A stretch of 64,000 nt of DNA from a virus, in IMG/VR virus record IMGVR_UViG_3300047357_000359, positions 1-64,000 of that record. One strand, given 5' to 3'. The notes under the pieces are model-generated. The model was given only the letters and a program-made list of their open reading frames with translations, did no database searches and was not told the origin of the DNA. This document shows positions 4,792 through 64,000 of this stretch, in pieces. The position numbers and the translations under genes were made by a program. Within the stretch, counting starts at the first letter, position 1, and each line of letters opens with the position of its first letter.

Positions 4792-4881
4792 TGGCGGAAG
4801 TGGTAGGATTCGAACCCACGGTAGAGTCACCCCTACGACGGTTTAGTAAACCGCTCCTTTAAACCACTCAGGCACACTTCC
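4792..4881 (-). tRNA. tRNA-Ser, anticodon ACT (A34)
   Basis: Acceptor GGAAGTG/CACTTCC, G73, encoded CCA, long variable arm, TTCGAAT T-loop, anticodon arm GCGGT-TTACTAA-ACCGT. Confidence 0.9.
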
Positions 4882-18151: not shown

Positions 18152-19330
18152 ATGATTGACAAAACCCCATTTGAAAACACAGTTGATGATTTGAAAAAGT
18201 CAGGTAACTATCGAGTCTTTAACGACATCTTACGTGAAAGAGGAGAGTTTCCTAATGCCATCTGGTATGGGAAGTATGCTATAAAAAATATAGTAAACTG
18301 GTGTTCAAATGATTACCTAGGAATGGGTCAGCATAAGGTGGTTCTAGACGCAATGCATACTGCACTTGATCAAACAGGAGCAGGATCAGGCGGGACTAGA
18401 AATATTGCGGGTACAAGTCATTATCACGTTGCCCTAGAGAACGAACTCGCCCAACTGCATAGCAAAGGAGCGGCTTTACTCTATACATCAGCATATGTAG
18501 CAAATGAATGGACTCTAATTGCGTTAAAACGTATCATTCCCGACATTGTTTTTATTAGTGATAGCAAGAATCACGCTTCCCTCATTCAAGGAATACGAAA
18601 CAGTGGTGCAGAAAAGAAAATATTTAGGCACAATGATCTTGAGCATTTAGAAGAACTACTGCGAGACGTCAAAGGCACACCTTGTATTGTCTTTGAGTCC
18701 GTGTATAGCATGGATGGATACGTCAGTGACATACCAGGCATTGTTGCTCTTGCTGAGAAGTACGGTGCTATTACATATCTCGATGAAGTCCACGCCGTTG
18801 GCCTGTATGGTGAAACAGGTGCAGGATATTCTGCAGAGCAAGGATCACAGGACAAAATCGATATACTGAATGGCACCTTAGGGAAAGCCTACGGAGTGCA
18901 GGGAGGATACATTGCAAGTGATAGTATTATCATTGATGCTATTCGCTCTGTTGCTTCGGGGTTTATTTTTACTACTTCAATGAGTCCTGTTATTTGTGCA
19001 GGAGCATTAGCTAGTGTAAAATATTTGAGAGACCATAACGAACTACGAGAACAACACCAGGAACGAGCCAAAAGACTTAAGAAACTTCTTACCAACAGGG
19101 ACATCCCTATCTTCGAAAATGTGACCCACATCGTTCCTATTAAGATCGGAGATGCTAAGAAGTGTAAAGCTATAAGTGACGAACTTATAAATGAGTATGG
19201 AATTTACTGTCAAGCAATCAACTATCCAACAGTTGAAGTAGGTACGGAGCGCCTACGACTTGCGCCGACACCTTTCCATTCGAATGCAATGATGCATCAA
19301 TTAATTGAAGCTCTACAGAAAGTACTATAA
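18152..19330 (+). CDS. hemA: 5-aminolevulinate synthase
   Basis: WCSNDYLGM, GAGSGGTRNIAGT, FESVYSMDG, LDEVHAVG, GTLGKAYG, INYPTV..GTERLR. Confidence 0.95.
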   Translation: MIDKTPFENTVDDLKKSGNYRVFNDILRERGEFPNAIWYGKYAIKNIVNWCSNDYLGMGQHKVVLDAMHTALDQTGAGSGGTRNIAGTSHYHVALENELAQLHSKGAALLYTSAYVANEWTLIALKRIIPDIVFISDSKNHASLIQGIRNSGAEKKIFRHNDLEHLEELLRDVKGTPCIVFESVYSMDGYVSDIPGIVALAEKYGAITYLDEVHAVGLYGETGAGYSAEQGSQDKIDILNGTLGKAYGVQGGYIASDSIIIDAIRSVASGFIFTTSMSPVICAGALASVKYLRDHNELREQHQERAKRLKKLLTNRDIPIFENVTHIVPIKIGDAKKCKAISDELINEYGIYCQAINYPTVEVGTERLRLAPTPFHSNAMMHQLIEALQKVL

Positions 19331-19332
19331 CA

Positions 19333-19761
19333 ATGATGAAAAACTTTAATATAAAGAAAGCGTTTTGGTTTACGCTAGGATGTCTACTATTAGGTGTAGC
19401 GTTTGTAGGAATCTACCTACCAGGCTTACCTTGGAGTACACCCGCAGTTGGTGCCGCATATTGTTTTGCGAAGTCAAGTGATAGAATGCACAACTGGATT
19501 ATGAACCATAAACTATTTGGTCCGTTTCTACGTGGCTGGAGCGAGAAGAGAGTATTTCCAACTAAAGGAAAATATTTAATGATCGTAACAATGTGTTCAA
19601 GTTTAGTTATTATGTGGTTTACTACAGGTAACTTAAAAGCAATAGCATGGACTGGCGGCTTCATGGTCCTTGTTGCTATTTGGGCGTGGAGATATCCAGG
19701 TTCACATAAAGAACATGCTCTTAGAAAAGCAGAAGGCCGAAAGATAGCATGGCTGAAGTAG
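19333..19761 (+). CDS. ybaN: YbaN (DUF454) membrane protein
   Basis: G..LPGLP.STP...A..CFAKSS.R.H.W...H..FGP.L..W. Confidence 0.85.
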   Translation: MMKNFNIKKAFWFTLGCLLLGVAFVGIYLPGLPWSTPAVGAAYCFAKSSDRMHNWIMNHKLFGPFLRGWSEKRVFPTKGKYLMIVTMCSSLVIMWFTTGNLKAIAWTGGFMVLVAIWAWRYPGSHKEHALRKAEGRKIAWLK

Positions 19762-19931: not shown

Positions 19932-20056
19932 TAGTTGGTAACCCACCTAGCTTTAACATACCTTAGACCATTTATGCTAGTTTAACTTATAAACTTCCTT
20001 CTTTAAATAATTGACTGAGTCGACGTTGACTTAGTATTTTAGAAAGGAGATCTTAT

Positions 20057-20290
20057 ATGGAAATCTTAAATAAAGTAAAAACTTGGGCAAGTGCCATTAC
20101 TGAGGTAGGTGTATCACTTATCGCTTTAGGTATCGTGCTTGAAGTTTTATTCAACGGGCAGAACATTCCGTTCTGGCCAAACATCAGCGTAGTAGACAAC
20201 ATCACTGGAATGATAACAGCGTTATCTGCACAGGGCTTAGTTGGTCTAGTTGCTGTATGGGTGTTATATTCAATTTACAATCGCAAGTAA
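20057..20290 (+). CDS. Small two-TM membrane protein
   Basis: AAGGAG SD; two hydrophobic segments. Confidence 0.8.
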   Translation: MEILNKVKTWASAITEVGVSLIALGIVLEVLFNGQNIPFWPNISVVDNITGMITALSAQGLVGLVAVWVLYSIYNRK

Positions 20291-20312
20291 GAAAGCATAA
20301 CACTTTTAAGTT

Positions 20313-20350
20313 ATGGCAGAGCCGTCTTGGCGGACAGCTCTGTCATTTTT
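20313..20350 (+). terminator. Intrinsic terminator
   Basis: ATGGCAGAGC...GCTCTGTCAT stem followed by a T-tract, between convergent genes. Confidence 0.7.
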
Positions 20351-20353
20351 AAT

Positions 20354-20401
20354 TTATCTTCCTGATACCCAGTCTTGTTCGTCTTCAGTGTAAGGCCACA
20401 T
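20354..20401 (-). CDS. 15-aa micropeptide MWPYTEDEQDWVSGR
   Basis: TAATG stop/start overlap with the upstream ORF and a GGAGG SD. Confidence 0.4.
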   Translation of the reverse strand: MWPYTEDEQDWVSGR

Positions 20402-20505
20402 TAGTGAAAATACCCTCCCCAGAACAATCCGTTAACAAGCATTACGCCTACTAGGATTGACATCATAATACTAAATGGAATTAGTGCAGATATAACATTA
20501 CGCAT
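20401..20505 (-). CDS. 34-aa hydrophobic micro-protein
   Basis: MRNVISALIPFSIMMSILVGVMLVNGLFWGGYFH, overlaps the DUF1127 stop. Confidence 0.5.
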   Translation of the reverse strand: MRNVISALIPFSIMMSILVGVMLVNGLFWGGYFH

Positions 20506-20740
20506 GAGCTTTACCTTTCCAAGTTGCTACAGGTTTCCCTCGCATATAATGGTCGCCAGCTTCATATTTGTCCTTGGCTTCCATATCACGAATTGGTTCA
20601 TCAGCAATATAATCTATATCACCACGTTTGATTCCTATATCTCTCAAGTCATGATCAGTTAGGCTATGTAATACTGCTCTAGTATTTCTAGCACGAGTGT
20701 GGGCTTTTGAAATTTTAAATAATCTAGCGAAGAATGACAT
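20498..20740 (-). CDS. DUF1127 (YjiS-like) small protein
   Basis: R.TR..L..LTDHDLRDIGI.RGDI. Confidence 0.9.
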   Translation of the reverse strand: MSFFARLFKISKAHTRARNTRAVLHSLTDHDLRDIGIKRGDIDYIADEPIRDMEAKDKYEAGDHYMRGKPVATWKGKAHA

Positions 20741-20955
20741 TACTTAATCCTCCCTTGATCAACCATTAAGTTACGTGCTTGTTCGTGATAGCCTTGACGT
20801 GATAGTTCAGCGGCCGCTCTAGCTCTGCCTGCTGATTCACCAAACGCAATCAGTCCAATCCACATACCTAATAGTACGTTTCTAATTACTACACACGTTT
20901 TGCATGTAAAGTCCCAAGTTGTTTCTCTTAATTCTATAGCAGTCATTATACCCAT
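20740..20955 (-). CDS. Small protein in DUF1127 operon
   Basis: GRARAAAELSRQGY helix; translationally coupled. Confidence 0.65.
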   Translation of the reverse strand: MGIMTAIELRETTWDFTCKTCVVIRNVLLGMWIGLIAFGESAGRARAAAELSRQGYHEQARNLMVDQGRIK

Positions 20956-21209
20956 CCTCTTAAATTTTTGTTAGTTGTAGCGTTGCTCATTCTTTTATCA
21001 TGAAAATTGCCTAAAGCAATTGATGTAATATCAGAACGTCCAATGCCTAAATCACGTAGTTCGTGATCTGTTAGTTGGGATAATTCCTTGTGTGTTCTAC
21101 GAATCGCGGCTTTGTTAGCTCTGTTTCGTTTCCATTCCTTTACTAAATCCATCAAGCCAGCTATAGCGTCTTGAATCACAGTTGATACTGTCATAATTGC
21201 TTGTGTCAT
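20946..21209 (-). CDS. DUF1127 (YjiS-like) small protein
   Basis: RRT..ELSQLTDHELRDLGIGRSDI. Confidence 0.9.
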   Translation of the reverse strand: MTQAIMTVSTVIQDAIAGLMDLVKEWKRNRANKAAIRRTHKELSQLTDHELRDLGIGRSDITSIALGNFHDKRMSNATTNKNLRGWV

Positions 21210-21388
21210 TAGTTATGTACTCCCATCTTAGGACCTTTGCCCTGGTGGGTTAACATATAGTGAAAGGCATATTGCCAATCTTTTCCGTACTCTGTTTTGG
21301 CGTAAGTGAGCATCTCTTTTTCGAAAGCCTTGGACGGGCTTGGGTTTCCAAGTAAACTCACAAGGCCGTTGAATAGCATAGTAGCCAT
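21209..21388 (-). CDS. Small hypothetical protein, first gene of DUF1127 operon
   Basis: Start MATMLF after AAGGAG; YAKTEYGKDWQYA. Confidence 0.7.
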   Translation of the reverse strand: MATMLFNGLVSLLGNPSPSKAFEKEMLTYAKTEYGKDWQYAFHYMLTHQGKGPKMGVHN

Positions 21389-21414
21389 TTTACTTCTCCT
21401 TATATAAGTTTTGT

Positions 21415-21535
21415 GGATGCTTGAGGAAAGCAATACCCCGGAACTTCCCCGGCGGTGCGTGAACCTTTGGTCCCCGTCAATCACTTGTAACGGATGGATA
21501 ATCCGCATTGTCTATCCAATGTGTCTGTGTGTGGA
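21415..21535 (-). ncRNA. Unclassified multi-hairpin structured 5' leader
   Basis: Five consecutive GC-rich hairpins between an ATAAATA motif (about 21572) and the SD. Confidence 0.6.
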
Positions 21536-21811
21536 AGCTTCAAAATCATTGCAACTTTTCTACTTCACCTGTATTTATTAAATACGCACAAAAGTCGGGC
21601 CTTAAAAGAGTGTGATTTCCATGTTTTTTTTGTAAAGGCTGTTATGCTCTTAGTGCATGGATAAGTTGTTGCTAATATTAGCATGTTCTTATAAGAACCG
21701 TGTTTTTGCTTTGGTAGTATAAGTATTAATATGCACTTGACTTTTTAAGTTATTGTGTTACTATAATAAACATTGTGATTAACTATCAGGTGAAAGCCGG
21801 GAGACAACACA

Positions 21812-22876
21812 ATGAATAAACTTTTCGTAAACATAAGGTACTTCATTGCACCATTGTTAATACTTGTAACACTCGCAGGAGTGTTGGCAGGTGGAGCATG
21901 GGCATGGACAGGTGTAGGCTTATTGGGAGTAGGCATTATACTTGACACACTTATCACTAAACACACTCGTGGAGCAGTTGATGAGAATGGAGAGACCTTA
22001 GGTATCCCCTGGTTACAGAATACAGTAATGTATTTGATGTTACCAGTCTTTGTAGCATTACAGTTAGCTCTTGCTTACCAAATATTTAATGGTATGGCAG
22101 GTGCAGAACTATTAGGTGCTACACTATCAACAGGTATATTTGCAGGCATAGGTATAATCTATGGGCATGAACTATCGCACACCAAAGGCATTGCATTTGT
22201 AATAAGCCGCTGGATGATGGGACTATCAGGTTCAGCACATTTCTGTTATGCTCATGTGTACAATCATCATTTGGAATTAGCAAGTGAAGATGATCCTGCA
22301 ACTGCACCAAGAGGACGTGATATCTATTCACACTATATCAAATCACACTTAGGACAATCTAAGTTCTTGTTTGAAATGGAAAGAGGTAGATTGAAACGTT
22401 TAGGTAAACCTTTCTTGTCCGTAAGTAACAGATGGATAAGAGGTTACATGATGAGTGTACCTACACTTGCATTGTTCTTCTTTGCAGGTGGTTGGTTAGG
22501 TGTCGCATGTATCGGACTTGTTTGGTTAATATCAAACTTCGAACTTGAAGCACTTAACTATCTAGAACACTATGGTTTGATTCGTGTTAAAAGCGAACCA
22601 ATAGACTATAGACACTCATGGGATAACTCAACATTATTCACAAGCTGGTTCTTCATAGAGATTGGTCGCCAGGCTGATCATCATGACAGAGGTGAAACAC
22701 ACTTCTGGGAACTTGACGAAGTAGGTGCACCTAACACAGGTGTAGGTTACTTCACACTCTTTGCATTAGCATTAGTACCACCAGTGTTCAATAGCTTTAT
22801 GAAAAAGCATTTGGACAAATGGGATAAAGAAATGGCTACTGAAGCAGAAAGAGAAATAGGAAAACAGTTCGTTTAA
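21812..22876 (+). CDS. alkB: Alkane 1-monooxygenase (membrane di-iron)
   Basis: HELSH, HVYNHH..., DPATAPRG, NYLEHYG, RQADHH His boxes. Confidence 0.9.
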   Translation: MNKLFVNIRYFIAPLLILVTLAGVLAGGAWAWTGVGLLGVGIILDTLITKHTRGAVDENGETLGIPWLQNTVMYLMLPVFVALQLALAYQIFNGMAGAELLGATLSTGIFAGIGIIYGHELSHTKGIAFVISRWMMGLSGSAHFCYAHVYNHHLELASEDDPATAPRGRDIYSHYIKSHLGQSKFLFEMERGRLKRLGKPFLSVSNRWIRGYMMSVPTLALFFFAGGWLGVACIGLVWLISNFELEALNYLEHYGLIRVKSEPIDYRHSWDNSTLFTSWFFIEIGRQADHHDRGETHFWELDEVGAPNTGVGYFTLFALALVPPVFNSFMKKHLDKWDKEMATEAEREIGKQFV

Positions 22877-22882
22877 CCCTGT

Positions 22883-22914
22883 TGGGGTGCAATCACAAGT
22901 TGCACCCTTTCTTT
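22883..22914 (+). terminator. Intrinsic terminator
   Basis: GGGTGCAA...TTGCACCC followed by TTTCTTT. Confidence 0.75.
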
Positions 22915-22940
22915 CTAATTGCTGGATAAATACATATACA

Positions 22941-22990
22941 ACGTTCAGCCGATATAGGCCGGAAGTAAGCAACTATGCTGAAGGAACGCA
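22941..22990 (+). ncRNA. Glutamine riboswitch (glnA-type motif)
   Basis: P1 CGTTC/GAACG, P2 GCC/GGC, junction CGGA, E-loop AGTA/GAA, P3 AGCA/TGCT. Confidence 0.8.
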
Positions 22991-23014
22991 CTTAACTGTA
23001 AAAAGGAGAGTGTA

Positions 23015-23206
23015 ATGAACAGATACGATTACCTACTTAAATCATACCGTGAGCAAAAAATGAGAGAACGCAAGGAGAAAATCCTTATGAAAACTCGTAG
23101 TGAAGTAAACGTGTATGGAAATGGTACGACTGGATATACTGTTACTGCTGGAGAAAATTCTGGTAAAGTTTTAAAACATATATCTATTAACCACGACAAC
23201 AAATAA
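23015..23206 (+). CDS. Small basic protein under glutamine riboswitch
   Basis: 63 aa, AAGGAG SD; terminator GATAGGCGAGT...GCTCGCCTATTTT follows. Confidence 0.7.
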   Translation: MNRYDYLLKSYREQKMRERKEKILMKTRSEVNVYGNGTTGYTVTAGENSGKVLKHISINHDNK

Positions 23207-23298
23207 ATTGGATAGGCGAGTTAACTCAGCTCGCCTATTTTATCTTGACATAATAGATAATTAAGTATATACTAGTAGCACATTACGAGGATTGCTTA

Positions 23299-24054
23299 AT
23301 GAAACTAATCATTGCAGGGTATGGGTATGTTGGTAAGGCATACCATGCTATACTTAAAGAGTCTTGGGACGTTGAAATTCATGACCCGCGGCTTGGGTAT
23401 GTCGCTGATTTTGATAAAGTTTGCCAAGGAATCATTTGTTGTGTGTCAACGCCGTCTAACGCAGACGGATCATGTGATGGCAGTAGTGTCATTGACGTTG
23501 TTAATCAAGCAAGACAGTTAGATAATATTCCTGTGCTTGTTAAAAGTACTATTGATCTTCAAGTCTGGGATCAAATCAAAGAGTTCAACACAACCTTTAG
23601 TCCAGAGTTCCTACGTGCTGAAACAGCCGTAAAGGATCTGTGCAATGCAGAAACACACTATCTTGCTAAAGGCGATACAAACTTTTGGGCAACTATATTA
23701 ATAGAAGCTCTTGGTAAGATTAACGTGAATACTAAAAACTCCCCTGAAGAACTTATACTAATAAAGTATCTAAGAAATAGTTTCTTAGCGACTAAGGTAA
23801 GTTTCTTCAATCAAGTGTATGACTTATGTGAAGCAAGTGGTGTTAACTATACTTCAGTTGCTAATGGTGTAAGTGTAGACAAACGTATTGGTGAAAGCCA
23901 TACAAGTATAACGACAGAGCGTGGCTTTGGAGGACATTGTTTTCCTAAAGACACACTAGCTCTAACAAAGTTGGCAGAACAACATGGTGTTGATCTGTCG
24001 TTAATTGAATGTGCTATTAAGTACAATTACCAAGTAAGGAAGGACAACGTTTGA
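23299..24054 (+). CDS. ugd: UDP-glucose/GDP-mannose dehydrogenase family (short form)
   Basis: [41 protein letters not shown]. Confidence 0.85.
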
Positions 24055-25010
24055 AAATGAAAATTATCACAGGAAATGCTAATCCAGATTTAGCACAACA
24101 GATTGCAGAACATTGTTTTGCAACACTAGTACCGGCTAACGTATCGACGTTTGCTGATGGAGAAAGTAGCGTAGAGTTTTTAGAAAATGTACGTGGCGAA
24201 GATGTGTTTATTATACAGAGTACCTGTACACCTGTTAATGATAGTGTTATGGAACTTATGATTATGATTGATGCGGCACGTAGATCAAGTGCAAGTAGAA
24301 TTACAGCAGTCATTCCTTACTTTGGTTACGCAAGACAAGATCGTAAGAGTGCTTCACGTACTCCTATCACAGCAAAACTTGTTAGTAACTTATTAACAAC
24401 AGCAGGTGCAGATAGAATCTTAACAATGGATTTACATGCAGGACAGATACAAGGCTTCTTTGATATTCCTGTGGACGATTTAACAAGCCGTGTAGTCTTT
24501 GCAAAAGATATCAAACGTTCAATTGGTTGGAGAGATGATCCAGAAGTACAACAACAAGGAACAGTATTTGTATCACCAGACGCAGGTGGTGTTGTTCGTG
24601 CTAGGAAGTTTGCTGATATGTTTGGTGGCGACATTGCTATAGTAGACAAACGTAGACCAGAAGCAGGTAAGAGCGAAGTAATGAATCTAATTGGCGATGT
24701 ACAAGGCAAACATGCTATCCTAGTAGATGACATTGTAGACTCAGGCGGGACATTATGCAATGCGGCCAAAGCAATTATGGATGCAGGTGCTAGTAGTGTT
24801 CGTGCTTATATTACACACGGAGTATTAAGTAACGAAGCATGTCAAAAGGTTGAGAAGTCAGTACTAGATGAATTAGTAGTTACTGATACTATTCCTAATC
24901 GTTGTCCTAAGAACTGTAAGAAAACTAGACAAGTAAGTGTTAGTAACCTATTTGGCGAAGCAATACGCAGAGTTACTAATGAAGAATCAGTAAGTAGTCT
25001 GTTTGTATAA
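24051..25010 (+). CDS. prs: Ribose-phosphate pyrophosphokinase
   Basis: [45 protein letters not shown]. Confidence 0.97.
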
Positions 25011-25234
25011 TGAATTGGGAAGTACAAGATTTTAGACCAAAGAAACCAGTACCAAGTTGGGCTGAATGGATTTGGCCAAGAGACATGGCTATGTTTATCC
25101 TATGGCGATTATTCTTTTGGACTGTAATAATTCCTTTTGTTTTATTTGGTGCAGTACTAACTCCATTAGGACTCTTAATACAAATTCTCGTAATAGATTA
25201 CTTTACATATCTTCAGTGGAAGAACCAACAGTAA
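25010..25234 (+). CDS. Small membrane protein
   Basis: Hydrophobic 74-aa ORF coupled to prs. Confidence 0.6.
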   Translation: MNWEVQDFRPKKPVPSWAEWIWPRDMAMFILWRLFFWTVIIPFVLFGAVLTPLGLLIQILVIDYFTYLQWKNQQ

Positions 25235-25270
25235 TAAATACATACACAGCATAGCAAAGGAGACAATGAT

Positions 25271-25780
25271 TTGTCTGACGTACTTGTACTTAATGCAGAC
25301 GCACAACCATTATCATATCTACCCCTATCAGCAATTCAATGGAAAGAAGCAATAACCTATCTGTGGATGGATAAGGTTACAGTATTAGATTGGTATGATG
25401 ATTGGATTGTAAGTTCTCCTACTTGGGAAACTCGTGTACCGGCTGTGATCATGCTAAAGCAACAACAACGTAAACGGCGGAAGCCTCGCTTCTCTAAAGT
25501 AAACTTATACATTCGTGACTTATACACTTGCCAATACTGCGACATACAATTAATTAAAAAAGAACTTACCCTTGATCATGTTATACCTTTGAGTAAAGGT
25601 GGACGTACATCTTGGGAAAACATTGTGGCGGCTTGTATGCCTTGTAACACTCGTAAGGGTAACAAAACTGCAATGAAACCTAAACGTGAACCATATGCTC
25701 CAGACTATTACGATCTAGTTAACAAGCGTAAACAAATGGATCTAAAGATCAAACACCCTTCCTGGACCAACTACATATAA
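25271..25780 (+). CDS. HNH endonuclease (McrA-like)
   Basis: VLVLNA..., RD.YTCQYC, TLDHVIP.SKGG...WENIVAAC..CN..KG. Confidence 0.9.
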   Translation: MSDVLVLNADAQPLSYLPLSAIQWKEAITYLWMDKVTVLDWYDDWIVSSPTWETRVPAVIMLKQQQRKRRKPRFSKVNLYIRDLYTCQYCDIQLIKKELTLDHVIPLSKGGRTSWENIVAACMPCNTRKGNKTAMKPKREPYAPDYYDLVNKRKQMDLKIKHPSWTNYI

Positions 25781-25821
25781 TAGTAGTATTTAATTATACA
25801 ACTTAAAGCCATTAAATAAGA

Positions 25822-25839
25822 GTGTAAATATATTTACAC
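25822..25839. promoter_or_regulatory. Perfect 18-bp palindrome GTGTAAATATATTTACAC, copy 2
   Basis: Identical to 16438-16455. Confidence 0.7.
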
Positions 25840-25860
25840 CTAACATGAGAGGGCTCTAGG

Positions 25861-26004
25861 ATGGATTTTCGTTTTACATTGATACTTCTATTTGCTCTTG
25901 CCATGTTAGCATTATTTGTCAAGCCAGGACATGTCCCCCAAGAAAAAATTTATGATCCAGACGAAAAGGCTTGGAACGAAGTTGACGAAATAATAAACAA
26001 ATAA
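25861..26004 (+). CDS. Small membrane-anchored protein (47 aa, not in ORF track)
   Basis: MDFRFTLILLFALAMLALFVKPG...; GAGGG SD. Confidence 0.55.
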   Translation: MDFRFTLILLFALAMLALFVKPGHVPQEKIYDPDEKAWNEVDEIINK

Positions 26005-26032
26005 GAATGCCCCCGAACACTTCCGAGTGTTC

Positions 26033-26070
26033 AGAAAACCCTCTATAATGATGTAGAGGGTTTTCTTTTT
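26033..26070 (+). terminator. Intrinsic terminator
   Basis: AGAAAACCCTCTA...TAGAGGGTTTTCT followed by a T-tract. Confidence 0.75.
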
Positions 26071-26229
26071 GTTTCACTCTTGACTTTTGCTAAAACCTGT
26101 GCTATAAATAAAACTGTTTGTATAATTGTTCGAATTATGCAAAGCATGGAAGTTGGGCAACGTTGAGCCCAATCTCTTTTAACTTGTGAGCGATGTGGTA
26201 AAAGCATCAAGCAGATAGGAGAAATAATA

Positions 26230-27189
26230 ATGGACGCACTCACCCTATGGATGGCAATCGGATTTCTTTTCGCGGCCTATTCAGTAATAGCAAATGATTC
26301 AGTACAAACACTAGGTACATGGATCGCAAGTAATAACGATAAATTCAATTGGAAAATTATGTGGGGGTGTGCAAGTGCAGTTCTCCTTTATACATTGTGG
26401 TACGGTTGGACAGTAAATGGTGGAGACATCAGTTACGGTAGACTTAACAAGATACCGTTCCAAGAAATACAATGGTACCATGCGGCGGCACCAGGACTAC
26501 TATTAATACTAACAAGAATTGGCGTACCAGTGAGTACGTCATTTTTAGTTTTAAGTGCCTTTGCAAGTACATTTGTATTAGAGAAGATGCTCGTAAAGAG
26601 TATGATGGGATATGCAGTCGCGGCTGTGGCGGCATATTGTATTTGGATAGTGGTTACTAAACTACTAGATGAAGCAAAGCCTGTTAAAGAAGAACATAAG
26701 AAAGCATGGCGTGTAGCACAATGGGTAACAACAGGCTTCCTGTGGTTTACTTGGCTCAGTCATGACATGGCAAACATTGCCGTGTTCCTACCTAGAGAGA
26801 TACCTTGGGACTTAATGGTTATTATCTCACTTGTATTTGTAGGCGGACTTGCTTATATGTTTAAAGAAGGCGGAGGTAAGATACAAAAGATTGTTATTGA
26901 AAAGCACAATACAAGATATGTTCGTAGTGCTACTATCATTGACGGTGTGTATTGGTTGATCCTTTGGTTCTTCAAAGAGTATAACGATATACCTATGTCG
27001 ACAACTTGGGTGTTCGTTGGACTATTATGTGGACGTGAACTTGCTATGGCAACTATGACAGGCAAGGAAAAGTTCAAGACAGTATTTCCACTTGTAACTA
27101 AAGACTTCATTAAGATGATGATTGGCTTGGGTGCTTCTGTGGGAGTAGTGTTAATGATACACTATGTTATCGTACCAAACGGATATTAA
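26230..27189 (+). CDS. PiT/PHO4-like inorganic phosphate transporter-related membrane protein
   Basis: Duplicated signatures ANDSVQ...GVPVSTS and HDMAN...PMSTT; multiple TMs. Confidence 0.7.
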   Translation: MDALTLWMAIGFLFAAYSVIANDSVQTLGTWIASNNDKFNWKIMWGCASAVLLYTLWYGWTVNGGDISYGRLNKIPFQEIQWYHAAAPGLLLILTRIGVPVSTSFLVLSAFASTFVLEKMLVKSMMGYAVAAVAAYCIWIVVTKLLDEAKPVKEEHKKAWRVAQWVTTGFLWFTWLSHDMANIAVFLPREIPWDLMVIISLVFVGGLAYMFKEGGGKIQKIVIEKHNTRYVRSATIIDGVYWLILWFFKEYNDIPMSTTWVFVGLLCGRELAMATMTGKEKFKTVFPLVTKDFIKMMIGLGASVGVVLMIHYVIVPNGY

Positions 27190-29286: not shown

Positions 29287-29386
29287 TGGCTCTGGGGGAA
29301 GGACTCGAACCTCCACGATAAATAATTTGCCGTCATTTACCACACGAGAAACAATCGTGCGTGTCTACCAATTTCACCACCCCAGA
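29287..29386 (-). tRNA. Atypical 100-nt tRNA-Asn (GTT) with very long variable arm
   Basis: Acceptor TCTGGGG/CCCCAGA, G73, CCA; D-arm GTGAAATTGGTAGACAC; anticodon arm CACGA-TTGTTTC-TCGTG; 28-nt variable region; T-arm GGAGG-TTCGAGT-CCTTC. Confidence 0.85.
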
Positions 29387-41734: not shown

Positions 41735-43363
41735 GTGGCGATTGTACAAATTTCACGTATACAGGTTAGACGCGGACAAAAGAATGCAGGTACTGGCATA
41801 CCGCAATTAGCTGGCGGTGAGTTTGGCTGGGCTGTAGATGCTAGAGAACTTTACATTGGTAACGGTTCAGTATCAGAAGGTGCACCAGCAGTTGGTAATA
41901 CAAAGATTATTACACAACATGATAACTTGTTTACGTTTGCAGACACATACAAGTACAAAGCAACGGATGAAACAATCCAAACAGGTGCTACTGCTACAAC
42001 TCCAGTTACTAGAACATTACAAGAAAGACTAGACGAAACAGTAAATGTATTGTCGTTTGGTGCATTAGGTGATGGTTCAGATCAAACAACAGTTTTACAA
42101 AGAGCTATTGATCAACTATACCTAAACAATGCATCAAAAGGAAGTGTTACAAGTAGAGTAAAATTATATTTTCCAGCAGGTAATTACACATTATCAAACA
42201 GTTTAAAAGTTCCGCCACATGCTACACTAGTTGGTGAAGGCAGTGAAAGAACAATCATTACACAGACTGGTGCGTTTCCAATTATAGAAACTGTTAATAG
42301 CACAAGTACTCCAGGTACATATGCCAGTGATGCAACTAGCTCATTTATTAATCAAGCACAAGATATTAAAGTGTCAGGCTTTACACTAGTACAACAAACT
42401 GTTAATACAGGACTAGCATTGACTAGTTGTAGAAACAGTACGTTTGAAGATATTACTATTAAAGGCACTTGGTCAACAGGTACAGTAGTAACAGCAACAC
42501 AAGTTGGTGTACTATTAAACAGTTTATCAACAGCAGTAAGTTCAAACAATAATACGTTTACTAACTGTACTATCGAAGGACACTCATATGGTGTGTTTAG
42601 TGATTTTGATATTAAAGAAAATACGTTTAGTAATACAACATTTAAAACTTTAGACAGAGGTGTTGTATTTGGACAAGGAACTACTATTGGTGCTCAAGGA
42701 CAATTAACAGGTCCACAGAAAAATACAATTACTAGTAGTACATTTACAGACATTGACGAATACGGTATATTTGTTAACAAGGGTAACTATAATAGAAGCA
42801 CACATAACACATTTACTAGTGTTGGTAACAATGGTGGAGCAAACTCAAATGCTTCATTTGCTATTATTAAGTTTACAGACGGTACTGCATTAACTAATAG
42901 CAGTGACGGTGACTTCTTTGACAGAACAGCAGATTTGTCATATAACCAAACATTGATTTCAGGCTACAAATATGTACCAGAAGTTGAAGGGCCAGGATTA
43001 TTTAAAAATGAGTTTTCATATAGAATTCCTGTAGCACAACAGAATACATTTGTAAGAGTATTAAAGTGTAGTGGCGAAGTTAGTAAAAACGTACAAATTG
43101 CGTATGTATACAAATCAACAGCCGTTAACGCAATTAGAGAAGGTGTACTAAACATCTTTGTTAACCTTGCAGACGGAACTACGCAAACAACAGACGAGTT
43201 TACATTTTTAGGAACTGACGCATACAGACCTAATTTAGAATTTCAAACAGCATTAGCTGATGAGGATGGAGATGCAACTAACGAAACAATAGTTGTGCAG
43301 ATGAAGAATACAACAACTAGTGATACAGGGTCAATATCCTTTAACGTTACATATAAGACTTAA
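41735..43363 (+). CDS. Virion tail/baseplate-associated protein with pectate-lyase-like beta-helix
   Basis: MAIVQISRIQVRRG...PQLAGGEFGW N-terminus; V..FGA.GDG...Q.AID...LYFPAG.Y; Thr/Asn-rich repeats. Confidence 0.7.
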   Translation: MAIVQISRIQVRRGQKNAGTGIPQLAGGEFGWAVDARELYIGNGSVSEGAPAVGNTKIITQHDNLFTFADTYKYKATDETIQTGATATTPVTRTLQERLDETVNVLSFGALGDGSDQTTVLQRAIDQLYLNNASKGSVTSRVKLYFPAGNYTLSNSLKVPPHATLVGEGSERTIITQTGAFPIIETVNSTSTPGTYASDATSSFINQAQDIKVSGFTLVQQTVNTGLALTSCRNSTFEDITIKGTWSTGTVVTATQVGVLLNSLSTAVSSNNNTFTNCTIEGHSYGVFSDFDIKENTFSNTTFKTLDRGVVFGQGTTIGAQGQLTGPQKNTITSSTFTDIDEYGIFVNKGNYNRSTHNTFTSVGNNGGANSNASFAIIKFTDGTALTNSSDGDFFDRTADLSYNQTLISGYKYVPEVEGPGLFKNEFSYRIPVAQQNTFVRVLKCSGEVSKNVQIAYVYKSTAVNAIREGVLNIFVNLADGTTQTTDEFTFLGTDAYRPNLEFQTALADEDGDATNETIVVQMKNTTTSDTGSISFNVTYKT

Positions 43364-46260: not shown

Positions 46261-47364
46261 ATGGCAAAGACAGTATTTAATCGTGAAGCTGTAGACTTCA
46301 CAAAGCAACATATGTTCTTCGGAGCAGATCAAAACACACAGAGATACGATACATTTCGTTTCCCTGTATTTGACAAACTTAACCAAACAATGCTTGGTTA
46401 CTTTTGGCGTCCTGAGGAAGTATCGTTACAAAAAGATAGAGCTGACTTCCAAAACTTTCGTCCAGAAGAAAAACACATTTTTACAAGTAACCTAAAGTAT
46501 CAAACACTACTAGATAGTGTACAAGGAAGAGGACCATGTCTTGCTTTCTTGCCTCATGTATCTTTACCAGAACTAGAAGGTTGTATTGTTACTTGGGACT
46601 TCTTTGAAACTATTCACTCACGTAGTTATACACACATTATGAAGAATGTATATCCTAATCCAAGTGAAGTATTAGATCATATTTTAAATGACGATGAAAT
46701 TATTAAACGTGCAGTTAGTGTAACTAAAAACTATGATGCATTTACAGGTGCGGCAGACGCATTCATTCATCGTAAAGAAGGAACCATGCGTGACGTTAAG
46801 AAAAAAATGTTCCTTGCTATGATGAACGTAAACATCTTAGAAGGATTACGTTTTTATGTTTCGTTTGCATGTACATTTGCATTTGGTGAGCTAAAGAAAA
46901 TGGAAGGCTCAGCAAAGATTATTAGTCTTATTGCTCGTGATGAAAGTCAACACCTTGCATTAAGTTCACACGTTCTTAAGAATTGGATGCGTGGCGATGA
47001 CGATCCAGAGATGGCTAAGATTGCAAAAGAATGTGAAGCAGAAGTTTATGAAATGTGGAAGGCATGTGTTAACGAAGAAAAAGCATGGGCTAAACATTTA
47101 ATGAAAGACGGATCAATTATTGGTCTGAACGAAAGACTGTTAGGCGATTACGTAGAGTACATTGCCAACCGTAGGCTTAAAGCATTAGGATACTCAACTA
47201 TCTTTGATGCATCATCAACCCAAAACCCGCTACCGTGGACACAACATTGGCTATCTAGCTCAGGCTTGCAAGTTGCACCTCAAGAGACAGAAGTTGAAAG
47301 TTATATCATCGGTGGGATTAAACAAGACGTGTCAACAGACAGTCTAAAAGGATTTAAACTATAA
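46261..47364 (+). CDS. nrdB: Class Ia ribonucleotide reductase beta subunit
   Basis: FWRPEE, LDSVQ, ETIHSRSY, LEG.RFYVSF, RDESQH, APQE.E..SY. Confidence 0.97.
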   Translation: MAKTVFNREAVDFTKQHMFFGADQNTQRYDTFRFPVFDKLNQTMLGYFWRPEEVSLQKDRADFQNFRPEEKHIFTSNLKYQTLLDSVQGRGPCLAFLPHVSLPELEGCIVTWDFFETIHSRSYTHIMKNVYPNPSEVLDHILNDDEIIKRAVSVTKNYDAFTGAADAFIHRKEGTMRDVKKKMFLAMMNVNILEGLRFYVSFACTFAFGELKKMEGSAKIISLIARDESQHLALSSHVLKNWMRGDDDPEMAKIAKECEAEVYEMWKACVNEEKAWAKHLMKDGSIIGLNERLLGDYVEYIANRRLKALGYSTIFDASSTQNPLPWTQHWLSSSGLQVAPQETEVESYIIGGIKQDVSTDSLKGFKL

Positions 47365-52721: not shown

Positions 52722-53027
52722 ATGAAGTGTACTAAAGGCGACTTAGCCCAAATCATATATTCAGTACGTCCTGAGAATATTGGACGAATTGTCAAATGCG
52801 TAGATTATATTGGTAAATTCAAACAAGGAGAACAGTTTGAGTTTAGAGGTATGCCCTGCCAATGCCCTGTTACAGATCACTATTGGTGGATTGAAGCAGA
52901 AGACTTATCAAGCCTGTTTGGACCTAGCCCAAGAGCATACATTGCCGACAGTTGGTTAGAGCCTTTAAAGAATCCAAATTCCAAAACAAAAGAAAAAGTA
53001 GAAAAAGAACTTGACATAGCCGCATAA
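52722..53027 (+). CDS. Hypothetical protein
   Basis: MKC.KGDLA.I...N.G.IV...D.WL.P. Confidence 0.7.
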   Translation: MKCTKGDLAQIIYSVRPENIGRIVKCVDYIGKFKQGEQFEFRGMPCQCPVTDHYWWIEAEDLSSLFGPSPRAYIADSWLEPLKNPNSKTKEKVEKELDIAA

Positions 53028-53048
53028 TGAGTGTATAAATATACTCAT

Positions 53049-53310
53049 AACGTTGAAGCAATTCAAACGCTATACAGGACTCGGGGGCAGTACCCGACGC
53101 CTCCACCATAAACACATTAAGCACAGGAGTGTGCTTATGATGGGGGCGAACTAGGATCGACTGGTAGTTAATAGAGTTAGTGGAGTTATCCGGATCTAAG
53201 CACGGTTATCGCGAAGAAAACTACAGACGCAAACGAAAACTTTGCTCTTGCGGCCTAGTAATTAACTAGGTTACGGGGTTGGCAACTTACCTGGCAACAG
53301 AAAAGTTGCG
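53049..53310 (+). ncRNA. ssrA: Circularly permuted two-piece tmRNA (alphaproteobacterial type), tag ANENFALAA
   Basis: Acceptor piece ...TCGGG-GGCAGTA-CCCGA-CGCCTCC-ACCA ends at 53108; coding piece starts GGGGGCG at 53142 (G3:U70); tag ORF 53229-53258; outer boundaries approximate. Confidence 0.92.
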
Positions 53311-53330
53311 TTTTTACTATTGGGGGCAAT

Positions 53331-53586: not shown

Positions 53587-54642
53587 ATGCCACCACGTAA
53601 TCATAAGAGTTGGTTAGCACAACCAAACGTAGAATCAATCAGCAGTTCAGCATATAACGATCCAGAAATATTTGCACAAGAGCAAGAACGTATCTTTAGT
53701 AAAGTATGGGTACCTATGTGCCACATCTCTGAGATGTATAACAAACTAGACTACCGAACAACACAGATAGCAGGTGTTAATGTTATTGCATACAACACAG
53801 GCGATGGTGTTCGAGCATATCGTAACTATGGCAGTTGGGCACCTAGTGGTACTCTTGGAGCACCTATTGTAACTGTTGAACCACAGTTGCATTGTGAAGT
53901 AAAGCACGGAGGCATGGTATGGGTAACACTTGATCCTAATCCAACGCAGAGTGTTGAGGAATGGACAGCAGGTGCATTTGATTGTATTGCTGATGCTATT
54001 GACACAGAAGAAATGGAAGTGTTTCATTATCACAAAGCAATTATAAATACCAATTATAAGTTATGGCATGATACCAATAGTGAATTCTATCACGACTTCA
54101 TGCACTACTTCAATAGAGTAAGTGGGTTCAATGATGAGTACTTCGCACGTAAGAATATACCTTTTGATAATGGGCATGTTAATGTGTCTAGTTTTACTGT
54201 CAACTATGAGGAGTACGAAGGCTTTGAAGATAGAGGAGAATTATCATTCCCAAACTTGCCACCCAATCAATGGTACATGGTTGATCTGTTCCCTGGATTC
54301 AACTTCAACCTTCGAGGCTCCGCCTACCGTAGTGATTCAGTTACTCCCCTAAGTTGTAACAAAGTTCTTATTGAGTTTAGAGGTTATGGACTGCGTAAGG
54401 ATACACCTGAAGAAAGACTAACACGTATCAAACATCACAACAGCATATGGGGACCGTTTGGACGTAACCTACATGAAGACCTAATTGGTGTAGCAGGACA
54501 AGGTACTACAATGCGTGAAGGTACAGAAGCACGTAACATATTACATGGTAGACATGAAAATGGAACTATACATGATGAAGTAGGTATGCGTCATTACTAT
54601 TCAGAATGGGGCAAGTATTTGGATGTTGACCCGTATCAGTAA
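53587..54642 (+). CDS. Ring-hydroxylating oxygenase alpha-subunit-like protein (MsmA-like) lacking Rieske ligands
   Basis: Y.DPEIF.QE.ERIF.KVW; NYKLWHDTNSEFYHDFMH; HED; no CxH...CxxH. Confidence 0.75.
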   Translation: MPPRNHKSWLAQPNVESISSSAYNDPEIFAQEQERIFSKVWVPMCHISEMYNKLDYRTTQIAGVNVIAYNTGDGVRAYRNYGSWAPSGTLGAPIVTVEPQLHCEVKHGGMVWVTLDPNPTQSVEEWTAGAFDCIADAIDTEEMEVFHYHKAIINTNYKLWHDTNSEFYHDFMHYFNRVSGFNDEYFARKNIPFDNGHVNVSSFTVNYEEYEGFEDRGELSFPNLPPNQWYMVDLFPGFNFNLRGSAYRSDSVTPLSCNKVLIEFRGYGLRKDTPEERLTRIKHHNSIWGPFGRNLHEDLIGVAGQGTTMREGTEARNILHGRHENGTIHDEVGMRHYYSEWGKYLDVDPYQ

Positions 54643-62487: not shown

Positions 62488-63032
62488 GCTTAAAAGACCT
62501 TACTTGGGAACATCATAAGAACGCAGAAAGACAAGAATTTGTAAAAGTCTTAATGGGCGGAGATATTAGCCCTGAGACTTATGCTACATTTTTATTCAAT
62601 CAACACCCGTGTTATAACCTATTAGAAGTAATTGCTATGACACATGGATTGTTCGACGACATTCCTGAAGTGCGTAGAGCACCTCGTATCTTTGCAGACT
62701 ATGAAGAACTATGGGAAGATAAAGATAATACGCCAACGTTATTAAACGTAACAAAAGAATACACCGATCACATTATGTCTATTAAAGACGATAAAGAAAA
62801 AATTATGGCTCACTTGTATGTTAGGCATATGGGCGACCTAAGTGGTGGTCAAATGATTAAGAAGAAAGTTCCTGGTAAAGGAACTATGTACGAGTTCGAT
62901 GGAGAAGTCAACGACCTTAAAACAAAGATTAGAGCAAAGATACACGACGAGTTGGCTGACGAAGCTAAAATATGTTTTGACTTTGCAACTAAGGCATTTA
63001 AGGAAATGATGGAACACGAACGCAATGACTAA
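62484..63032 (+). CDS. Biliverdin-producing heme oxygenase
   Basis: LK..T.EHH..AE, AHLYVRHMGDLSGGQMI, EA..CF. Confidence 0.9.
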   Translation: MSLKDLTWEHHKNAERQEFVKVLMGGDISPETYATFLFNQHPCYNLLEVIAMTHGLFDDIPEVRRAPRIFADYEELWEDKDNTPTLLNVTKEYTDHIMSIKDDKEKIMAHLYVRHMGDLSGGQMIKKKVPGKGTMYEFDGEVNDLKTKIRAKIHDELADEAKICFDFATKAFKEMMEHERND

Positions 63033-64000
63033 CGTATCAAGTATTTGTATTGTTGGAGGTGGCACAGCAGGTTGGATGACAGCCGCTTATGCTTTATATA
63101 ACTTACCCAACGTAAACGTTACCCTTGTAGAAAGTCCTAACATTCCAACAGTAGGAGTAGGTGAAGCAACTATACTAGGCTTTGACCATTACTTAAAAGA
63201 CTGTGGCATTCCAATGGAGTTATGGACCAAGGCATCAGACGCAACTATTAAATGCGGAACATACTTTCCTAATTGGAAAGGCGACAATACAAATATTTGG
63301 CAACCGTTTTATTTTCCAGTAGGTACTAGTGACGAAGGACACATGGGCGACATTGTAAACTTAGCTCTTGATGCTGGTGCTACACAAACTGATATGGAAA
63401 CGTACATGTCATGGTACAACACTTGTATTACAAACAACGTTGTTCCAGAGAACACAAGTGTTAAAGGCGGCAACGCTCATGTAGGATATCATTTAGATGC
63501 TATCAAACTTGCAAACTTCTTATCAGAATATCTAAACAAAAAGTATACTAAACTAACACACATTAAAAAACATATTAGTAAGCCTGTAATTAATAAATGT
63601 CAAGTTGAAAAAGTTATATTAGAAGATGGACAAGAACTTGTTGCTGACTTCTTTGTTGACTGTACAGGATTTAAGAAACTATTATCAAACGCAATACCAG
63701 GTGCAGACTGGGTTGACAGAAGTCATATGCTGTTTACTAATGCCGCGGTTGCAAGTCAAATTGATTACGAAACAGATGACGAACCACAAGTACCTTATGT
63801 TACTGCACAAGCAACTGACCTAGGTTGGATATGGAAAACTCCTGTTAGAGATAGAATAGGTAGTGGGCTATGTTACAACAGTGACCTAACAACTAAACAA
63901 GAAGCAGAAGATCACTTTGTACAACATTGGGGAGAACATAGACTACGTACAGGTAAGTTTAACCACATACCGTTTGAGCCTAAGTATAATAGAAAGAATT
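63025..64000 (+). CDS. Tryptophan halogenase-like flavoprotein (runs off window end)
   Basis: MTNVSSICIVGGGTAGWMTAA, VGVGEAT, DATIK.G..F..W, YHLDA, DCTGF, GWIW..P...RIG.G. Confidence 0.88.
   Translation, partial: MTNVSSICIVGGGTAGWMTAAYALYNLPNVNVTLVESPNIPTVGVGEATILGFDHYLKDCGIPMELWTKASDATIKCGTYFPNWKGDNTNIWQPFYFPVGTSDEGHMGDIVNLALDAGATQTDMETYMSWYNTCITNNVVPENTSVKGGNAHVGYHLDAIKLANFLSEYLNKKYTKLTHIKKHISKPVINKCQVEKVILEDGQELVADFFVDCTGFKKLLSNAIPGADWVDRSHMLFTNAAVASQIDYETDDEPQVPYVTAQATDLGWIWKTPVRDRIGSGLCYNSDLTTKQEAEDHFVQHWGEHRLRTGKFNHIPFEPKYNRKN

Follow-up and report, generated by a model that had tools for sequence, protein, structure and literature searches.

A type 1 glutamine riboswitch that probably controls translation of a 63-aa micro-protein from a compact, late-type unit in a marine phage

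Riboswitches are rare in phages, and the locus described here raises the question of what a glutamine riboswitch controls, and in which direction, in a virus that does not appear to infect cyanobacteria. We addressed this computationally in a stretch of 64,000 nt, positions 1 to 64,000 of IMG/VR record IMGVR_UViG_3300047357_000359 (hereafter the window, whose coordinates are used throughout). The parent record measures 73,727 bp, with a completeness of 23% as estimated by CheckV; the contig is not recognisably Melnitz-like, and its genome of origin may be much larger. The stretch is found in many marine metagenomes. Our analysis indicates that positions 22925-23246 very probably constitute a self-contained late unit of a marine phage with a SAR11-type host, in which a glutamine-ON translational switch governs a 63-aa micro-protein. 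The span proposed in the preliminary description, 22941-23206, does hold the aptamer and the open reading frame (ORF) but omits a promoter-like box at 22925-22932 and a terminator at 23210-23240. The unit and its surroundings comprise the following features.

21812-22876: desaturase gene (PF00487), the upstream neighbour
22884-22918, plus strand: intrinsic terminator of the desaturase gene, a 10-bp stem (22884-22908) followed by TTCTTTCT
22925-22932, plus strand: T4-late-promoter-like box GATAAATA
22940-22992, plus strand: glutamine riboswitch aptamer, type 1, glnA motif (RF01739, 54.6 bits)
22942-22946 with 22984-22988, plus strand: aptamer stem P1, CGTTC with GAACG
22948-22950 with 22957-22959, plus strand: aptamer stem P2, GCC with GGC
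22960-22967, plus strand: aptamer junction CGGAAGTA, given also as CGGAAGUA
22968-22970 with 22977-22979, plus strand: aptamer stem P3, AGC with GCT, then GAAG at 22980-22983
22989, plus strand: linchpin C, the conserved base after P1
22988-23013, plus strand: expression platform, 5' arm GCACUU (22988-22993) and 3' arm GAGUGU (23008-23013)
23004-23008, plus strand: Shine-Dalgarno (SD) sequence AGGAG, in the platform loop, its last G in the 3' arm
23015-23206, plus strand: 63-aa ORF, family phrog_32989, with its ATG at 23015
23210-23246, plus strand: intrinsic terminator closing the unit, a 13-bp stem (23210-23240) followed by UUUUAUCUU
23245-23273, plus strand: σ70-like promoter serving the next gene

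The preliminary description had named a glnA-type riboswitch and proposed an Infernal search against Rfam as the check. Run against all 4227 families of Rfam 15, this search matched RF01739 over model positions 1-53 of 53 with a score well above the gathering score of 35 (E 3e-9 for the window), and the copy is the only one in the 73,727-bp record. Every sequence element quoted earlier for a three-way junction with an E-loop was found in its place: the conserved junction and E-loop nucleotides (CGGAAGUA ... GAAGGAACGC) are intact, with 0 mismatches, at 22960-22967 and 22980-22989, and both the G and the C of the predicted ligand-dependent long-range pair are present. The covariance model thus confirms a type 1 glutamine riboswitch, which is predicted to bind glutamine. 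A scan of IMG/VR for the exact pattern of the aptamer's conserved blocks returned at least 119 loci. In the 97 distinct phage copies among the matches listed, P1 is nearly invariant, while 3/3 pairs of P2 and 3/3 pairs of P3 have changed on both sides; compensatory changes in P2 and P3 are seen in the RNAs of the 63-aa family too.

Among the matches listed, the aptamer nearly always stands 20-30 nt upstream of an ORF of 26-65 aa (about 115 units), and about eleven loci (L014, L018, L034, L056, L071, L094, L101, L107, L110, L114, and L120) carry tandem aptamers 6-10 nt apart before a single micro-ORF. The downstream ORFs of the listed matches cluster into at least ten families, among them a 28-48-aa "W-C" family (at least 29 units), the 63-65-aa family to which the window's protein belongs (at least 18), and a 50-aa "...DPRLQGI" family (at least 12). 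Another family, built of YRGV repeats, matches DUF4278 just under its cut-off (19.9 compared to 25.3 bits). At one locus (L030, 5536-5667, plus strand), a riboswitch-linked ORF of 43 aa has a YRGV motif at its N-terminus and, joined to it, the basic helix "QLLK...QAQMQM" seen in a different family, which hints that some of the helical micro-proteins may derive from DUF4278-like ancestors. A homologous N-terminal helix shared across the riboswitch-linked families was also considered and set aside, as hhalign comparison of the 63-aa family with three others gave no relation.

The 63-aa ORF is present as it had been described, and several observations on its family indicate that it is a real gene under selection: the family comprises 22 clusters at 90% identity and 124 representative clusters at 50% identity, six residues (R3, R28, G37, T38, G40, and G46) are invariant in its alignment, and pairwise dN/dS ranges from 0.08 to 0.49 with a median of 0.26. 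The protein matches phrog_32989 over residues 8-54 (E 6e-9) and has two parts, a basic helix at the N-terminus (residues 3-27) and a small Gly-rich beta segment of the form NGxGTSGY...G.N.GKV..H. AlphaFold2, given the family alignment, returned a model with a mean pLDDT of 71, in which helix 3-27 reaches 80-85 and three short strands 60-70; a Foldseek search of the PDB with this model gave no fold match with E below 0.001. Searches of Pfam (even at E up to 10) and NCBIfam assigned no family, and the ESM Atlas returned just unnamed viral clusters (scores 0.79-0.83). With the window's own protein, tblastn against 50,697 phage records found no match even at E 10; with a more typical member of the family as query, homologues appeared in 25 of these records, namely, 24 Pelagibacter phages and 1 uncultured Mediterranean phage. 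The Pelagibacter phages in question span three morphotypes (HTVC019P, HTVC011P, and related podoviruses; siphovirus Kolga; and myovirus HTVC008M), and full-length hhalign comparison gave probabilities of 96.9% to HTVC019P gp53 and 96.1% to Kolga gp9. Within 600 nt of the homologue gene, none of the five cultured Pelagibacter phages checked (5/5) carries a glutamine riboswitch.

What such a protein might do is suggested mainly by analogy. It is presumably a host-directed effector, and by analogy with IF17 its target may lie in host nitrogen or carbon metabolism. The parallel with gifB drawn in the preliminary description has to be narrowed to one of function: descent from IF17 or IF7 (gifB/gifA, PF14105) was tried and rejected, given that the protein has no PF14105 (DUF4278) match, its alignment contains no YRG motif, and the profile of its family resembles that of the phage YRGV proteins with an hhalign probability of 0.06%. 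It is quite possible that the aptamer is real while the protein is unconnected with nitrogen metabolism, and that glutamine acts only as a cue of metabolic state that times or doses a general late function, be it that of a structural, assembly, lysis-timing, or nucleic-acid-binding micro-protein. The homologues in Pelagibacter podo- and siphoviruses, which do without the riboswitch, mean that the protein's job need not concern nitrogen; those of HTVC019P, HTVC011P, Kolga, and HTVC008M are found among late or small genes, in HTVC008M between the genes for the DNA end protector and the tail tube. The same switch is, moreover, common to at least ten apparently unrelated micro-ORF families, and Buchholz et al. 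2022 (PMC9004378) speculated on lysis timing. Against this, nothing direct can be set; however, the sole experimentally studied case of the switch, in cyanobacteria, regulates an inhibitor of glutamine synthetase, and the basic N-terminal helix with its invariant arginines loosely recalls binders of the IF7/IF17 type.

How the aptamer would reach this ORF is seen in the 22-nt gap that separates it from the ATG. The preliminary description had suggested that GCACTT pairs with GAGTGT over the SD and start region, and both the minimum-free-energy fold (ViennaRNA), which contains this helix, and compensatory changes in the phage copies uphold the suggestion. The helix is short, with 5-6 bp including two G-U pairs; on its 3' side it takes up the final G of the SD plus the spacer, stopping 2 nt short of the ATG. 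Within the 63-aa family, 15 distinct RNAs were compared; all five central positions pair in every one (100%), and at one of them C-G gives way to U-A. To follow it across families, we built a covariance model that includes the anti-SD helix and used it to align 106 phage copies from the matches listed, which comprise 97 distinct sequences. The helix is 97.9% paired in the 97 distinct copies, a share of paired cells that is inflated by the fitting of the alignment to the model, and four of its five pairs (4/5) show changes on both sides, with counts of CG:40/UA:25/UG:5 at one pair and CG:58/UA:7/UG:6 at another; slid controls fall to 32-54% paired. An alignment-free script likewise found a mean of 4.95 of 6 pairs, compared to 4.73 ± 0.035 (sd) when partners were swapped between sequences, and matched arm types recur (GCACCU/GGGUGU, GCACUU/GAGUGU, and GCAUCU/AGAUGU). 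For gifB, Klahn et al. 2018 (PMC6212724) reported that glutamine enhances protein synthesis and postulated that the C after P1 pairs with the ribosome-binding site (RBS) in a mutually exclusive arrangement; crystal-structure work, as summarised in that paper, has this C forming a ligand-dependent long-range pair. Since the covarying helix uses both the SD and the linchpin C, and in view of the gifB precedent, we regard a glutamine-ON translational switch as the best reading of the locus, with ligand binding and polarity as predicted properties. A switch that is instead glutamine-OFF, or that works through transcription or RNA stability rather than translation initiation, seems improbable. It draws on the polarity being a prediction, and on an alternative coupling to initiation in the minimum-free-energy fold, where the start-codon segment AUGAAC is paired to the 5' strand of P1; yet that pairing is not kept in families with other start codons, no terminator hairpin with a U-tract was found between aptamer and ATG, and a covarying helix that takes in the SD together with the ligand-dependent linchpin C predicts ON.

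Under the favored translational ON switch, transcription would start about 6 nt downstream of GATAAATA, placing the RNA 5' end 1-2 nt before the aptamer. In the absence of glutamine, C22989-U22993 would pair with G23008-G23012, burying the 3' end of the SD and the spacer and keeping translation of the 63-aa protein low. Once L-glutamine is bound, C22989 would instead serve in the aptamer's own long-range G-C pair, the linchpin of its folded state; the short helix would then open, exposing the SD and allowing synthesis of the protein. The effector would then be produced late in infection and only in a nitrogen-replete cell.

As to the host, the window encodes a two-piece (permuted) tmRNA at 53007-53312 (plus strand) that Infernal assigned to the Rfam models alpha_tmRNA RF01849 (124 bits) and RF04321 (103 bits), the cyano_tmRNA model reaching 21 bits, under its cut-off; ARAGORN made no call at 53007-53312. 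A second indication is the gene at 18152-19330, which encodes 5-aminolevulinate synthase (TIGR01821, 572 bits), the Shemin-pathway enzyme typical of Alphaproteobacteria. Its nearest relatives, at 60-98% identity, are few and lie on mostly short contigs of metagenome-assembled genomes (MAGs) with mixed labels, and the remaining ones are alphaproteobacterial (51-58%). NrdA does not discriminate the host, being 69% identical to cyanomyovirus and 68% to Pelagibacter phage Mosig homologues, and the 73.7-kb record contains no psbA. Because the alpha-type tmRNA and 5-aminolevulinate synthase coincide with a protein family restricted to Pelagibacter phages, an alphaproteobacterial host, of SAR11 type or related, is far likelier than a cyanobacterial one, which supports the earlier designation of a non-cyanobacterial phage. 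The alternative, a cyanophage whose unit is the usual glutamine riboswitch of cyanobacteria or their phages in front of an IF17-like gene, is very improbable: cyanobacteria commonly carry glutamine riboswitches, NrdA sits marginally closer to cyanomyoviruses than to Mosig, and YRGV proteins in some IMG/VR units match DUF4278 under its cut-off, but the tmRNA scores 124 bits with the alphaproteobacterial compared to 21 bits with the cyanobacterial model, a Shemin-pathway enzyme is encoded, psbA is missing from 73.7 kb, and the 63-aa protein is not DUF4278 and belongs to a family that, in 50,697 phage records, turned up just in 24 Pelagibacter phages and a single uncultured marine phage.

Several side observations concern the wider record and the distribution of the riboswitch. 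The 98%-identical 5-aminolevulinate synthase lies on a 20-kb contig (L134) binned as a Flavobacteriales MAG, probably as mis-binned phage DNA. In the window, a DUF454/YbaN gene follows the synthase (tetrapyrrole-related genes at 18152-19761, plus strand), and a heme oxygenase (PF01126; 62484-63032, plus strand) is a further tetrapyrrole-related auxiliary gene. Other genes encode a tryptophan-halogenase-like flavoenzyme (PF04820, E 6e-61; 63025-63999, plus strand), a ring-hydroxylating oxygenase alpha-like protein (53587-54642, plus strand), a pectate-lyase-fold beta-helix protein (41735-43363, plus strand), and a class II (D/K/N) aminoacyl-tRNA-synthetase-like core (PF00152; 29393-30268, minus strand). 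The last adjoins an unusually long tRNA of 100 nt at 29287-29386 (minus strand), called tRNA-Glu(ctc) by ARAGORN and probably a mis-called tRNA with a long variable arm; the same program found a tRNA-Ser with anticodon ACT at 4792-4881 (minus strand). Outside cyanobacteria and phages, RF01739 was detected in 1 of 151 sampled Alphaproteobacteria (G011). In the order of that genome, whose AT-rich genomes measure 0.8-2.0 Mb, it occurs in 28 of 42 genomes at 50-66 bits; the riboswitches there have a TAGTTATAAT box upstream and a CUCUUUCC/GAAAGAG platform, and 11 of 12 fetched loci (L214, L216-L225) place the aptamer about 40 nt before a conserved 468-aa circularly permuted ATP-grasp protein (PF14403, 511 bits). 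Assigning the host by BLAST of the tmRNA against 42 + 301 alphaproteobacterial genomes proved uninformative, with just the universally conserved T-arm matched except on contigs of two small genomes of the same order: those in G165, which resemble the window tmRNA at 77-87% over most of its length, and tmRNA-like ones in G163, a genome that also has four glutamine riboswitches (50-59 bits). These contigs may be mis-binned phage DNA or a hint of the host; none of our conclusions draws on the unpublished genome G283.

Intrinsic terminators stand on both sides of the unit, with stems at 22884-22908 and 23210-23240, and the riboswitch and 63-aa ORF therefore form a monocistronic unit insulated at both ends; the closing hairpin, a strong one (-17.6 kcal/mol, z -4.7), was overlooked by the consensus scan. 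The preliminary description had the aptamer right after a promoter, and what stands there is a late-promoter-like box. The late promoters of phage T4, which depend on gp55 and do without a -35 element, have the consensus TATAAATA at about -10, and the box GATAAATA matches it at 7 of 8 positions. Among the matches listed, 65 of 109 distinct IMG/VR aptamers have [AC]TAAATA ending 4-12 nt ahead of their CGTTCA, compared to 0.66 expected from the loci's own composition, whereas TAAATA shows no enrichment window-wide (76 found compared to 88 expected); since the motif recurs before CGTTCA without being enriched across the window, the argument for a promoter rests on the position of the box and not on its abundance. 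A scan for σ70 promoters found none for the unit, its single match (23245-23273) belonging to the next gene. Four RNA libraries yielded contigs that overlap the stretch in part, one identical over 22963-23195 and a relative's spanning 22927-23395; DNA carry-over is possible, and the contigs show neither 5' ends nor a start or regulation. A DNA search of window positions 20000-27000 against phages yielded weak PRPP-synthetase matches and nothing else.

The closest copies among the matches listed share 97% (L072), 94% (L097), and 92.5% (L086) nucleotide identity with the window. For L097 and L086, the similarity runs from 22927, in the promoter box, to the stop codon at 23206, and for L072 to the end of its locus at 23153; the flanking sequence is unrelated, and none of the window's neighbouring genes is found around the three copies. 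L086 and L097 come from related phages, in which the cassette's neighbour is a homologue, at 92% identity, of the window gene at 53587-54642; in the window, that gene and the cassette are about 30 kb apart. Because identity stops at these borders and the position in L086 and L097 differs, the module of promoter, riboswitch, and ORF relocates as a unit, and the sequences point to a movable, moron-like cassette of about 280-320 bp. Classic morons are usually expressed from a prophage. Like them, the unit is discrete, with its own promoter and terminator, and occupies different genomic positions in related phages; it differs in its late-type promoter and in the gate provided by a metabolite riboswitch. 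A bolder reading, which we put forward tentatively and consider rather doubtful as a whole, is that a late promoter, a glutamine riboswitch, and a micro-ORF travel together, as a mobile cassette of some 280 bp, among marine phages of heterotrophic bacterioplankton. The payload would have been exchanged among at least ten apparently unrelated families, the 63-aa one included, of effectors that shut down or redirect host nitrogen assimilation only when glutamine is plentiful, the micro-proteins being independently evolved functional analogues of IF7 and IF17.

If the unit works as proposed, the virus has placed translation of a late micro-protein directly under host glutamine, the cell's central signal for nitrogen status. 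At 320 bp, it is compact and experimentally tractable, and it ties a riboswitch to a protein family of cultured SAR11 phages. Should it be true that the micro-proteins target nitrogen assimilation, this would bear on how viruses reshape nitrogen flow in the most abundant ocean bacteria.

Comparison with known systems defines what the locus adds. Klahn et al. 2018 (PMC6212724) described glutamine riboswitches as exclusive to cyanobacteria, mostly before gifB. The switch of gifB (IF17) in Synechocystis PCC 6803 (PMC6212724) shares with ours the RF01739 three-stem aptamer with its conserved junction, the location in the 5' untranslated region of a small protein gene, and the proposed platform joining the C after P1 to the RBS. 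It differs in belonging to a cyanobacterium and an NtcA-regulated promoter, compared to a heterotroph's phage and a late-type promoter; the window's protein is, moreover, not DUF4278/IF17-like. The Glutamine-II (Downstream-peptide) riboswitch of marine picocyanobacteria (Weinberg et al. 2010, PMC2864571) likewise places its aptamer directly before short conserved ORFs (17-100 aa) but is a pseudoknotted RNA of another family (RF01704), found on cyanobacterial chromosomes and with DUF4278-like products (PMC2864571).

The nearest relatives are those of Buchholz et al. 2022 (PMC9004378), who reported glutamine riboswitches in OM43 phage Melnitz, Pelagibacter phage Mosig, and pelagimyophage MAVGs, so that a riboswitch of this type in a non-cyanobacterial phage, the novelty implied by the preliminary description, was already published. 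Their hosts are likewise streamlined marine heterotrophs, and their genomes also encode a two-piece alpha-type tmRNA (PMC9004378); the Melnitz copy has a nearly identical platform, with 79.5% nucleotide identity over aptamer and platform. The downstream micro-protein belongs to a different family: in the window it has 63 aa, whereas Melnitz has an ORF of 32 aa that its record leaves unannotated and Mosig has the 51-aa Mosig_00116. The Melnitz copy was read as controlling ssrA (PMC9004378), which the window's riboswitch cannot do because its tmRNA lies 30 kb away. On re-examination, the Mosig aptamer (50 bits) stands before Mosig_00116, a member of the "DPRLQGI" family, and the Melnitz aptamer (52.8 bits; L133 800-970, about 46398-46568 of MZ577097.1) follows ssrA and lies 25 nt upstream of the 32-aa "W-C" ORF (plus strand, MTLYQQWCY...) with the same platform, where the record annotates a minus-strand ORF instead. 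As both aptamers precede one, the conserved partner of the phage riboswitch is the downstream micro-ORF; the Melnitz riboswitch thus probably controls the 32-aa micro-ORF and not the tmRNA, and we suggest that the published ssrA reading be revisited. The kind of system is therefore already known, and the window is a well-supported further example of it; what is new is the 63-aa regulated protein family, the borders and mobility of the cassette, and the covariation support for its expression platform.
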